Source: Candidatus Thorarchaeota archaeon
Lineage (GTDB): Archaea > Asgardarchaeota > Thorarchaeia > Thorarchaeales > Thorarchaeaceae
Assembly: GCA_048884965.1 (NCBI GenBank)
Contig: JBHLQH010000053.1
Location: forward strand, 1 to 17,010
DNA: 17,010 nucleotides
Reading direction: 5' to 3'
Shown: positions 13,799 to 16,391 of the stretch, in pieces
How positions within the stretch are numbered: the first letter of the stretch is position 1
Layout of the letters: each line of letters opens with the position of its first letter
Program-made: the position numbers and the translations under genes
The notes under the pieces: generated by a model
Told to the model about the DNA's origin: nothing
The model's database searches: none
What the model saw: only the letters and a program-made list of their open reading frames with translations

Positions 13799-14749
13799 TC
13801 ATCTCGCTCCAGTGTGCCTATGCATGACTTCGAGATTCTTCCTCGCCGACTCGTTGTCAGGATCCAATCTGATTGCTTGTTGAAATGATGAGATCGCATC
13901 ATCATAGTTCTTCATTCTGGCATAGGTTATCCCCATCTTGATGAATATGGCTGGATTCTCAGGGGTCAGTTCGATTGCCTTGCTTAGGGCAGAGAGTGAG
14001 TCCTTGTTCTTCCCCCGTTGTCCCAATATCTGACCCAGAGTTATCCACCCCTCAGAATATGAGTTGTTGATTTGGACTGCTCTCTTCGCAGCCTTCTCAG
14101 CCTTACCCAGCTTTTCAGCTTTTAGTAGAGCTGTTGCCAGCAGGTTCAGCGCCTCACAGTCTTCGCCATTTGATTTCAAGCAATCATTCAGGGCATTGAT
14201 CGCTGCCTCATAGTCTCCATCGTTCATCAATCCTCTTGCCACTTCGAAAACGGACTCAGCCTTCGTTGGTTGCAGTGATACAGATTGTCTAAAGGCTTGA
14301 TCACTCTTCTCAATTCTATCCGTTGACAGATAGAGCAAACCAAGGCTCTTGTATGCCTCTGATTTGGACCTGTCCAAACGAAGGGCTTTTTTCAGCGCCT
14401 CTTCAGCTTCTTCATAGTCCTCCTTTCCGCGAAGATACTCTCCTAACTCGTACCATGCTTGGGAATCGTTCTCATCCTTTTTGATTCTCTTTCGAATTTC
14501 CTTTTCTGGATCTATCGCTTTCTTCTTTGGTTTAAGCTTCTCCGGAGATGCCTTTACTTTTTCTTTGGCGGGTTTCTTCGCTACAGATGCTTTCGATGTC
14601 TTCTCGATTGGCTTCTTTGTCTTCACTTTCTGTTCAGATGTTTCCTTTTGCTTTTTGGGAGTTTTCTTTGCTTGTTCCTTCTCTTTACCAGCTTTCTTCT
14701 TTGGCGTTGACTCACTCGTTGATATAATGAACGCCTCCTTCTGTTGCAA
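13799..14749 (-). CDS. Tetratricopeptide repeat protein with Lys/Glu-rich disordered N-terminus
   Basis: About 6 TPR units (AWYELGEYL...EAEEALKKALRLD, AYKSLGLLYL, GWITLGQIL...KAIELTP, FIKMGITY...QQAIRLDP); N-terminal ~80 aa low-complexity K/E/P. Confidence 0.92.
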   Translation of the reverse strand: MQQKEAFIISTSESTPKKKAGKEKEQAKKTPKKQKETSEQKVKTKKPIEKTSKASVAKKPAKEKVKASPEKLKPKKKAIDPEKEIRKRIKKDENDSQAWYELGEYLRGKEDYEEAEEALKKALRLDRSKSEAYKSLGLLYLSTDRIEKSDQAFRQSVSLQPTKAESVFEVARGLMNDGDYEAAINALNDCLKSNGEDCEALNLLATALLKAEKLGKAEKAAKRAVQINNSYSEGWITLGQILGQRGKNKDSLSALSKAIELTPENPAIFIKMGITYARMKNYDDAISSFQQAIRLDPDNESARKNLEVMHRHTGAR

Positions 14750-14844
14750 ATACTAAATCTCCTTTAACGCATCAGCATCAGATATCTGTTTCCAACTCGC
14801 TGATTTAGAGATTAAGTACGAATCGCCACCCTTTGTATGACGTT

Positions 14845-14872
14845 AATATATTTAAGATAAATATTTAAGATG
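14845..14872. promoter_or_regulatory. Back-to-back AT-rich promoter region with 11-bp direct repeat
   Basis: ATATTTAAGAT at 14848-14858 and 14861-14871; TATA-like on both strands between the divergent TPR gene and the microprotein cluster. Confidence 0.55.
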
Positions 14873-14930
14873 TAATATGTCAGACTATTACCACGCGAAT
14901 CGAAAATTTCGCATATGAACGGTGTTCGCA

Positions 14931-15041
14931 ATGACAAATCTAGAACGGAGAACAAACTCCAAAGTGAAGGATCTAGACAGGCGTCTTCGAACTAAGGGGA
15001 ACCTGTACCAAGACTACCTTGATGAAGGAGGACGGAACTGA
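14931..15041 (+). CDS. Microprotein 1 (36 aa) MTNLERRTNSKVKDLDRRLRTKGNLYQDYLDEGGRN
   Basis: ATG 14931 with GGTG 6 nt upstream; stop TGA overlaps next ATG (TGATG); 3' end embeds the GGAGG SD of the next ORF. Confidence 0.6.
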   Translation: MTNLERRTNSKVKDLDRRLRTKGNLYQDYLDEGGRN

Positions 15042-15154
15042 TGGCCCTCGCTAAGAGCGAGCGGGTCGAGTCAGACGTGAAGATGAACAACAAGTTGGCC
15101 GAGGTCCAATCGACCAAAGCCCTTGCACGCGCATACCTATACAAACAGGTGTAG
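15041..15154 (+). CDS. Microprotein 2 (37 aa) MALAKSERVESDVKMNNKLAEVQSTKALARAYLYKQV
   Basis: AAGGAGG SD upstream, TGATG coupling, TAG stop; similar to microprotein 3. Confidence 0.72.
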   Translation: MALAKSERVESDVKMNNKLAEVQSTKALARAYLYKQV

Positions 15155-15172
15155 AAAAGGAGGTGTATAGAA

Positions 15173-15271
15173 TTGGCAGAGGAAAAGATTCACAGGGAGA
15201 TCAAGCACAAAGGTCCGCATAAGAAGATCTGTTGTGAGGCAATCGCTCACGCATACCAGTATCGCAGGTAG
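15173..15271 (+). CDS. Microprotein 3 (32 aa) MAEEKIHREIKHKGPHKKICCEAIAHAYQYRR
   Basis: Strong SD AGGAGGTG at 15158-15165, 7 nt before TTG; TAG stop; similar to microprotein 2. Confidence 0.72.
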   Translation: MAEEKIHREIKHKGPHKKICCEAIAHAYQYRR

Positions 15272-15274
15272 ACC

Positions 15275-15394
15275 ATGATGACCGACGAAAGCGTCGTTGA
15301 CACGCCTAGAACAAAAGCCGGTGAAATTGATCTTCAAGACGGCAACCTTCGAGCTCTTTCATTGATTGATGTGCTCGCGTTGGAAGCTACGTGA
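15275..15394 (+). CDS. Microprotein 4 (39 aa) MMTDESVVDTPRTKAGEIDLQDGNLRALSLIDVLALEAT
   Basis: ATGATG 3 nt after the previous stop, AGGT SD-like upstream, TGA stop directly followed by a T-tract. Confidence 0.55.
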   Translation: MMTDESVVDTPRTKAGEIDLQDGNLRALSLIDVLALEAT

Positions 15395-15412
15395 GCCTTC
15401 CTACTCTTTTTT
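15382..15412 (+). terminator. Weak hairpin + oligo-T terminator closing the microprotein cluster
   Basis: GGAAGCT-acgtg-AGCCTTCC then TACTCTTTTTT. Confidence 0.5.
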
Positions 15413-15545: not shown

Positions 15546-15734
15546 TTGGCAGAGAAAGTAAGTAAATCAGACAAAATTAAGGCTGACCAGAAAGCCTGGA
15601 AGGCCGGTGTAGCCGCCATTGCAAAGTACAAGTTCATTACTGCAGACGAGAAGACAGCAATGGCCGCAAAGTATGACGCTCAGTTCAAAGCCTTGTTGGA
15701 TGCTGAGAAAGCAAAGGCCAAGAAAAAGAAGTAA
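15546..15734 (+). CDS. Small basic Lys/Ala-rich helical protein (62 aa)
   Basis: TTG start with GAGGG upstream, 17 K and 16 A of 62 residues, strong terminator downstream. Confidence 0.8.
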   Translation: MAEKVSKSDKIKADQKAWKAGVAAIAKYKFITADEKTAMAAKYDAQFKALLDAEKAKAKKKK

Positions 15735-15751
15735 TATACGTACTTCAACTA

Positions 15752-15786
15752 AGTCGGACTAGAGTAGTCCGACTCTCTTCTTTTTT
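15752..15786 (+). terminator. Strong hairpin + T-tract terminator
   Basis: AGTCGGACTA-gag-TAGTCCGACT perfect 10-bp stem followed by CTCTTCTTTTTT. Confidence 0.8.
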
Positions 15787-15863: not shown

Positions 15864-16391
15864 ATGACACATGATTGTATGAAGGCACTTGCAAGTAGGC
15901 AATCAATCCGAAAATTCACGGATTCACCTGTATCCGATCAGATGATTGATAACATAATCAAGATGGCTCTCCAAGCTCCTTCTGCAGGGAATCGGCAGCC
16001 ATGGAGAATAGTAGTCGTACGCGATCGCGAGAGATTGGAGAAGCTATCTAAAGCGGCCTTTGGGCAGCAGTTCGTCGCATCGTGTCAAGTACTACTTGGA
16101 ATCTTTGGAGTACCTGAGGAATCTGCTGAGAGATATGCTGATCGAGGTCGCGATCTCTATGTATTTCAGGACACTGCAGCACTTACGTACGCCTTACTCC
16201 TTGGTATTCATTTCAATGGACTTGGAGGATGCTGGGTAGGTGCTTTTGACGATGCCGCAGTTGCAGAGATATTCCAAGCACCTGATGGATACCGTCCGGT
16301 CGCTATGATACCTGTTGGTCAGTATGAAGCACAACCTCCACCACGTCCTAGACGAGGCATTTCAGAGGTAGTACTAAAGGAAACATTCTAG
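15864..16391 (+). CDS. Nitroreductase family protein (FMN-binding)
   Basis: SRQSIRKF, APSAGNRQPW, QDTA, GLGGCWVGAFD, PVAMIPVG motifs; GAGG SD. Confidence 0.93.
   Translation: MTHDCMKALASRQSIRKFTDSPVSDQMIDNIIKMALQAPSAGNRQPWRIVVVRDRERLEKLSKAAFGQQFVASCQVLLGIFGVPEESAERYADRGRDLYVFQDTAALTYALLLGIHFNGLGGCWVGAFDDAAVAEIFQAPDGYRPVAMIPVGQYEAQPPPRPRRGISEVVLKETF

Follow-up and report, generated by a model that had tools for sequence, protein, structure and literature searches.

The 17,010-bp stretch of DNA analysed here, hereafter the window, is a complete contig (C53) of a 4.09-Mb metagenome-assembled genome (MAG) of Candidatus Thorarchaeota, and carries four chained small open reading frames (ORFs), mp1 to mp4, flanked by a divergent tetratricopeptide repeat (TPR) gene and an ORF for a 62-aa Lys/Ala-rich protein. 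Our results show that mp2, mp3 and mp4 are units A, B and C of a micro-operon family, defined in this analysis, that is restricted to Thorarchaeota, occurs in several diverged copies per genome, and possesses its own promoter and a 3′ end made up of an RNA hairpin and an oligo-T tract. The window fits this family in two respects: it yields full-length A/B matches in ORFs of 26-37 aa, and it presents the order A, B, C, ending in [DE]VL.LEAT-TGA within the hairpin (15041-15398). All three units lie on the forward strand. Unit A (mp2; 15041..15154) encodes 37 aa between an ATG start and a TAG stop, with a net charge of +3, the N-terminus MALAK and the C-terminal sequence STKALARAYLYKQV. Unit B (mp3; 15173..15271) encodes 32 aa between a TTG start and a TAG stop, with a net charge of +4 and the C-terminal sequence CCEAIAHAYQYRR. 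Unit C (mp4; 15275..15394) encodes 39 aa with a net charge of -5, joining a variable N-terminal part to the invariant end DVLALEAT and a TGA stop.

Paralogy of units A and B and distribution of the family

Units A and B are true paralogues. The initial annotation of this DNA had proposed this relationship from a shared Tyr-containing C-terminal motif, and the ORFs, the peptide strings it quoted, their spacing (12 versus 11 aa) and the DNA strings it listed (CGCATACC; CAGGTGTAG and CAGGTAG) are all found in the sequence. The local BLOSUM62 score of mp2 against mp3 is 33, beating composition-preserving shuffles (z = 5.2, p = 0.0008; 20,000 shuffles). A hidden Markov model (HMM) of 13 homologues from other genomes, with the window's sequences excluded, retrieves mp2 at E 1.8e-14 and mp3 at E 2.9e-10, with Z set to all six-frame segments of the genome. 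Profiles of A only and B only, both free of the window, align over their full length with HHalign (probability 98.5%, E 1.9e-15), and the A HMM reaches a median of 20 bits on real B units against a maximum of 9.9 on shuffled B. The tandem duplication of one peptide unit envisaged by the annotation is hence supported, with the correction that it is ancient and not recent: the nearest relative of each A is another A and that of each B another B (41/41 in either case), so the duplication is older than the radiation of the genomes sampled, with no homogenisation of the copies since. The weaker echoes of the motif reported in mp1 and the 62-aa protein find no support. All remaining pairs among mp1, mp2, mp3, mp4 and the 62-aa protein are unremarkable (shuffle p 0.07-0.98), the window-free A/B profile does not match mp1, mp4 or the 62-aa protein, and for mp1 and the 62-aa protein the family HMM returns no match even at E<=1000.

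Scanned across genomes, as the annotation had proposed, the A/B unit proves to be conserved in 79/85 genomes of one Asgard family (Thorarchaeota), with matches in 0/315 other genomes of the phylum. Matches to the profile number about 480, with 11 in the window's own genome and at most 12 in any one genome, and these homologues are full-length and all lie in open frames of 30-45 aa; mp2 alone, used as query, likewise finds full-length matches in many genera of the same family. An exhaustive HMMER search over 1.84 billion representative proteins returned just 35 clusters, all of 29-84 aa, and those sampled are unnamed and contain one or two members. A DNA pattern for the C end was matched at 50 loci in 185,579 species genomes. 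Of these loci, 45 belong to MAGs labelled Thorarchaeota, Asgard or 'uncultured archaeon', nearly all with A and B units at fixed upstream distances, and five are bacterial and without A/B units.

The window's own genome contains eight to ten cassettes. Several of them lie at contig ends, since the assembly breaks at near-identical copies (82-95% DNA identity over the interval from -88 to the end of B), and, because the repeat family fragments the assembly, copy number is under-counted. Contig breaks fall within cassettes at the end of C5, at the starts of C11, C29 and C62, and at both ends of C40; between the end of C40 and the start of C29 there is a 77-nt overlap with 100% identity.

The A-B-C family is not described in the family libraries, structure databases or literature that we searched. 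There was no Pfam, NCBIfam, PHROG or PADLOC match for mp1-mp4, the TAG read-through product or the database relatives, and neither a PDB profile search nor the ESM Atlas gave anything usable. The sole library entry returned, the flagellar FlgD model (E 0.033), lies far below its cut-off and was rejected, as was a viral origin, since none of 16 pattern matches in IMG/VR was confirmed. A full-text literature search retrieved no paper on Thorarchaeota microproteins.

In the window mp2, mp3 and mp4 share one reading frame, with the TAG stops at 15152-15154 and 15269-15271 as sole separators. This arrangement is not general in the family, in which the commonest B-C junction is B-TAG-6 nt-ATG, in frame. 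Three database proteins resembling B-C fusions (P0031, P0032, P0035; ENA contigs of 0.5-1.6 kb) carry Q exactly at the unit-B TAG stop of related cassettes; they may reflect gene calling under a TAG=Q code or be genuine read-through variants, and are not counted as evidence.

Overlapping constraints on peptide, ribosome-binding site and hairpin

Alignments A1 and A2 give the consensus MALAK...VKMNKK.AKVQSTDA..HAY.Y for unit A and MA[LI]AK...[KR]ISTRAI.HAY.YRR for unit B, and show a variable N-terminal part and the end [DE]VLALEAT for unit C. Both termini of A and B are conserved (MA[LI]AK and ST.A[IL]..AY.Y) and the middle is variable; the Tyr-containing C-terminal segment, to which the annotation had drawn attention, is their most conserved part in homologues and is under purifying selection. 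Pooled Nei-Gojobori estimates of the ratio of nonsynonymous to synonymous substitution rates (dN/dS), which are rough figures from non-independent pairs, are 0.38 for A, 0.22 for B, 0.28 for the last ten codons of C and 0.69 for its N-terminal part. Each of the 44 unique cassettes has an open C frame of 30-40 codons and a VL.LEAT-type end in which V-L-x-x-E-A-T is invariant (44/44) and the x positions are A in 37/44 and L in 39/44. Variation at this end sits at third codon positions, and conservation is three-periodic. This pattern of substitution argues that A, B and C are protein-coding genes.

The A and B products are hydrophilic peptides of about 27-37 aa with a predicted helix-loop-helix. 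Mean net charge is +5.4 for A, +5.9 for B and -2.3 for C. The grand average of hydropathy (GRAVY) is -0.57 for A and -0.66 for B, within an overall range of -0.5 to -0.7; Trp is absent from the ten commonest residues of A/B, and A, B and C contain no hydrophobic segment or signal peptide. In the AlphaFold models, B has two helices and the end of C a short helix, fairly confident at a predicted local distance difference test (pLDDT) score of about 80.

A nucleic-acid signal is superimposed on the end of the peptides. Units A and B close, in the majority of cassettes, with the codons CGG AGG, AGG AGG or AGG AGA, which supply GGAGG or GGAGA, followed by the stop codon and placed 4-8 nt ahead of the next ATG. 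The terminal Arg-Arg codons are thus a putative Shine-Dalgarno (SD) site for the following ORF. Within the window's genus, unit A instead has KQV or KKV at its end and the site is placed in an 18-20 nt spacer. The window's GGAGGT (15159..15164, forward strand), the candidate SD site for mp3, lies at this genus-specific position in an 18-nt spacer, and a spacer SD is also present in L005b, L006, L007 and L008. The TTG start of unit B recurs in two of the three other genus-g1 cassettes examined (L006 and L007), and L008 has ATG. The last codons of mp3, CGC AGG, form with the stop an SD-like AGGT site 3 nt 5′ of the mp4 ATG, and the endings CAGGTGTAG and CAGGTAG, which the annotation had set side by side as the DNA ends of the two genes, are SD-like AGGT(G) elements. 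As a peptide feature the C-terminal motif is thus upheld for ST.A[IL]..AY.Y, which is not explicable by the SD, and the terminal basic residue or residues are largely nucleic-acid signal. The ORFs appear to be chained by SD sites in or just after the last codons of the preceding ORF, so that the peptides would be made together. The MAG contains no 16S 3′ end from which to take the anti-SD, and an SD-like 5-mer is found upstream of 19% of long ORFs.

The end of unit C overlaps an RNA hairpin (15371..15398, forward strand) that comprises the last 7 mp4 codons, the stop and 4 nt beyond. Its sequence is GUGCUCGCGUU-GGAAGC-AACGUGAGCAC; the family form has an 11-bp stem and the 6-nt loop GGAAGC, and the stable stem in the window is 8 bp (15373-15380 with 15389-15396; -13.7 kcal/mol, z -2.25). 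Among 44 distinct sequences, 92.6% of cells are paired, compared to 21-52% with a slid partner, and 14 cells show compensatory double changes (0/500 shuffles), such as GTG/GCAC to GTA/GTAC or GTT/GAGC, and TTG to TGG with GCA to GCC. The 3′ arm encloses the stop codon of C, which is TGA throughout (44/44 cassettes, among them 17/17 loci that had not been selected through TGA); the stops of A and B are TAG (65), TAA (54) and TGA (26). The end of the C peptide and the RNA stem are constrained together. The window has a T6 tract downstream (15407..15412, forward strand), likely an archaeal transcription termination signal, and a tract of at least five T lies within 45 nt downstream of C in 30/44 unique cassettes. 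Oligo-T termination is established in archaea, and hairpin and tract together are probably the cassette's terminator or a 3′-end stabiliser. At L009:1235-1294, in another genome of the same genus (G006), the last 19 unit-C codons and the hairpin remain at the position homologous to the window's cassette and overlap a 316-aa ORF in another frame. This element may have been retained from a cassette as a terminator, or it may be an insertion.

Promoters, regulator and genomic context

The window's gene order, mp1-A-B-C, recurs in related loci. The first gene, mp1 (14931..15041, forward strand; 36 aa), is extra to A-B-C and restricted to one cassette subtype (genus g1 and G020). Its alignment (A3) holds 4 sequences at a mean column identity of 65%, a search of its own genome matches only the window's copy, and its TGA shares one base with the mp2 ATG. 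Alignment with L006, L007 and L005b delimits a putative promoter and 5′ leader of the mp1-type cassette at 14839..14927 (forward strand). On this strand it contains a conserved block, GACGTTAATA (14839-14848), a TATA-like box, ATAAATATTTAAG (14857-14869), and an SD-like GGTGTTC (14921-14927). An inverted repeat, GCGAA-N8-TTCGC (14895-14912), separates the TATA-like box from mp1; its pairing is kept through changes in both arms (GCGAG/CTCGC, GCGGAA/TTCCGC) in the three other mp1-type cassettes, and it may be a 5′-leader hairpin or an operator.

Cassettes are self-contained units, with conserved promoter blocks, a 3′ hairpin with oligo-T, and downstream neighbours that lie on the opposite strand in 28/42. 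The four mp1-type cassettes, including the window's, have a promoter type of their own, unlike many other copies, which carry the palindrome AGTCACA-N3-TGTGACT with an extra TGTGAC half-site, a TATA box and a short leader. Satellite promoters of the latter type, which are conserved across genera (alignment A5), show a TGTGACCC half-site beyond the palindrome and TTGTGAAATATC directly 5′ of the ATG. The own-genome copies with a palindromic promoter are at C1:227866, C5:174046, both ends of C40 and C81:1301, and a similar palindrome-plus-TATA layout stands 5′ of a 424-aa gene (C2:49113) and a 693-aa gene (C88:308).

At one site, held by one cassette per genome, the divergent neighbour is an ArsR/PadR-like winged helix-turn-helix (wHTH) regulator of ~250 aa, related to Pyrococcus PH1932 (1ULY, E 3.8e-6), with HTH_20 below threshold in 12/12. 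The regulator has a ~100-aa helical domain C-terminal to the wHTH and no TPR peptide-binding domain. Strong orthologues are present in 77/85 genomes of the family and in 2 outside it, and a comparison of their coordinates with the A/B matches places the regulator divergent from a cassette, 200-1100 nt away, in at least 37 genomes. In the window's own genome it occupies C9:84910-85647 (L094:2611-3342, minus strand), adjoining a cassette at C9:85804, and about five further paralogues are encoded on C14, C16, C4, C1 and C17.

Another syntenic site has a PolX polymerase, a URO-D-like protein and HDAC as upstream neighbours, and an IclR-type HTH, an amino-acid kinase and a class I tRNA synthetase downstream. 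In the window, the divergent TPR gene (13799-14749, minus strand) is a neighbour common to just one other genome, of the same genus. The 62-aa Lys/Ala-rich protein (15546-15734), unrelated to units A/B, has its own hairpin terminator (15752-15774) and a start context that matches that of mp3 (AATTGGCAGAG); its ORF lies 3′ of the cassette in genus g1 only, and DNA matches to the gene are also found in G016 and G010. A 175-aa nitroreductase (15864-16391) follows and is not a conserved neighbour of cassettes. The inspection of neighbourhoods for modifying enzymes, another check proposed by the annotation, detected no radical SAM enzyme, P450, YcaO or similar enzyme beside any of ~68 cassettes (Pfam scans of window genes and recurrent neighbours), and no lanthionine synthetase, peptidase, exporter/ABC transporter or immunity gene recurs there. 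In the window's genome, 5/9 cassettes flank MFS, EamA or ECF-S-like genes. A link to transporters is not general in the sample, with polytopic membrane neighbours not enriched over 68 cassettes (8/120 versus a background of 8.8%, by a crude transmembrane count).

Possible functions and comparison with known systems

We tentatively favour, as a possible rather than a probable account, that A, B and C are unmodified cytoplasmic microproteins acting together in trans and in a fixed ratio, with the Tyr helix as a binding surface. This trans-acting reading is suggested by the tight coupling of translation, the complementary charges, the multi-copy dosage and the dedicated regulation, together with a lack of secretion or tailoring functions. 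A, B and C would be co-translated as a stoichiometric set and remain unmodified in the cytoplasm. The binding partner of the cationic A/B pair would be acidic (nucleic acid, the ribosome or C itself), and C, which is acidic, with a predicted disordered N-terminal part and a short invariant C-terminal helix, would partner or neutralise the pair. Dedicated regulators would switch expression, the ArsR/PadR-like wHTH at a 'master' copy and palindromic operators at satellite copies, and the Tyr motif would provide a binding interface, not a cross-linking site.

Several observations weigh against this account. The window's cassette is a satellite copy with no adjacent regulator, and it lacks the GTCACA...TGTGAC operator of other copies. 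AlphaFold finds no confident packing either for the A-B-C read-through as a single sequence (pLDDT 43) or for the B-C read-through with a 23-sequence alignment (pLDDT 60, predicted template modelling score (pTM) 0.19), and the near-neutral evolution of the N-terminal part of C also fits a mainly regulatory ORF.

Among small basic proteins, the α/β-type small acid-soluble spore proteins (SASPs) and the ribosome modulation factor RMF are stress proteins present in multiple copies or made in bulk. A and B are likewise small, basic, hydrophilic and multi-copy, with their own regulated promoters, but they have no homology to SASPs or RMF, are half the size and share an operon with an acidic partner, and DNA or ribosome binding is only proposed for them. 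Closer in layout are the multi-peptide leaderless bacteriocin operons (aureocin A70 aurABCD, enterocin L50A/B and garvicin KS), which also consist of tandem, co-transcribed paralogous genes for cationic peptides of 30-45 aa with no leader or signal. A and B, however, are hydrophilic and Trp-poor and have no amphipathic membrane-active profile, and the cassette includes an acidic third peptide, has no recurrent ABC exporter or immunity gene and shows no sequence similarity to these operons.

An alternative, which we judge unlikely, directs the peptides at the regulator itself: A, B and/or C would bind the helical C-terminal domain of the adjacent wHTH protein as anti-repressors or co-repressors, forming a feedback switch. 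The divergent pairing of regulator and cassette in so many genomes, the co-restriction of both families to the same archaeal family and the presence of a ~100-aa helical domain after the wHTH would fit such a switch, and a transcription factor gene divergent from tiny peptide genes is also the arrangement of the Rgg/SHP and RRNPP systems (e.g. PlcR/PapR) and of SinR/SinI, where SinI acts on SinR by anti-repressor or co-repressor logic. Adjacency, however, at most shows that the regulator controls the cassette, not the reverse, and up to 12 units per genome, with satellites under other promoters, suggest bulk effectors rather than a signal. The PH1932-related regulator also differs from those of the Rgg/SHP and RRNPP systems in having no TPR domain, A, B and C are not hydrophobic pheromone precursors, and many satellites, including the window's, have no regulator. 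Mimicry of the adjacent regulator by the microproteins was considered and rejected, with no sequence similarity between them (HMM scores of about 0 bits).

It is distinctly improbable, in our estimate, that the cassette is a toxin-antidote or selfish module in which cationic A/B inhibit growth, acidic C is the antidote and duplication spreads the set. As in type II toxin-antitoxin loci, the genes are small, coupled, multi-copy and lineage-restricted, pair basic with acidic products, and have promoters with operator-like palindromes; recent intragenomic duplicates at 82-95% nucleotide identity would also fit. Yet all products are at most 40 aa and encoded by three to four genes, they have no known toxin or antitoxin fold and no PADLOC, Pfam or PHROGs match, and they do not have the hydrophobicity of known small toxins. 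A-B cassettes without C exist, and some copies are syntenic across genera (at the PolX and regulator loci), unlike typical mobile toxin-antitoxin loci.

We regard as very unlikely a mainly cis-acting role, by which translation up to the UGA in the hairpin would control the 3′ hairpin (termination, stability or read-through) and the peptides would matter little. Unit C does recall TnaC-type leader peptides that stall at termination, with a fast-evolving but length-constrained N-terminal part, an invariant last octapeptide and a fixed UGA in a covarying stem by an oligo-T tract, and in the window's genome C-less A-B units immediately precede same-strand genes for MFS and ECF-S-like transporters. 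Stalling in C is hypothetical, however, and there is usually no same-strand gene to read into, given that 28/42 of the genes that follow C are convergent; there is no enrichment of membrane-protein neighbours, and clear purifying selection acts along the length of A and B, whose N-termini are conserved.

The annotation had also compared the peptides to aromatic cross-linked ribosomally synthesised and post-translationally modified peptides (RiPPs). We consider it highly improbable that A and B are RiPP precursors whose AYxY core is cross-linked or modified by an enzyme encoded elsewhere. A conserved Y-x-Y near the C-terminus, beside basic residues, is indeed a feature shared with biarylitides, cittilins and triceptides, and several diverged precursor-like genes per genome are also known from the prochlorosins. 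The analogy finds no support in the neighbourhoods, in which neither a tailoring enzyme nor a recurrent peptidase or exporter accompanies the cassettes and the window's nitroreductase is not a conserved neighbour, or in precursor architecture, since conserved termini around a variable middle are not a leader/core pattern. Finally, chance ORFs or a purely non-coding RNA element, which the very short ORFs and the real hairpin overlapping the C end might suggest, can be dismissed as extremely improbable in view of ~480 profile matches confined to short open frames, dN/dS well below 1, variation at third codon positions and the conserved architecture of start, SD and stop.

Taken together, these comparisons show a cassette that resembles bacteriocin operons in layout, regulator-peptide pairs in context and toxin-antitoxin loci in copy number, and that fails the testable defining features of each. 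As a long shot, one may speculate on a new kind of regulator-gated system of proteins of at most 40 aa in which A/B silence ribosomes or the nucleoid in bulk, C is a co-translated antidote, and the UGA in the terminator hairpin couples translation to 3′-end formation. If true, the cassette would represent a toxin-antidote or hibernation module that is specific to Thorarchaeota and lacks a described counterpart.

Among known prokaryotes, Asgard archaea are the nearest relatives of eukaryotes; to our knowledge, their small-protein content is essentially unannotated. The A-B-C family is near-universal within a single Asgard family and absent elsewhere in the sampled phylum, and its diverged multi-copy nature, apparent tight co-translation and own regulator are hallmarks of a lineage-defining cellular function missed entirely by current annotation. 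Its genes, of ~100 nt, also superimpose three constraints (a peptide, an embedded putative SD site and a terminator-like hairpin that includes the stop codon), and such overlapping constraints matter when interpreting 'conserved motifs' in microproteins.

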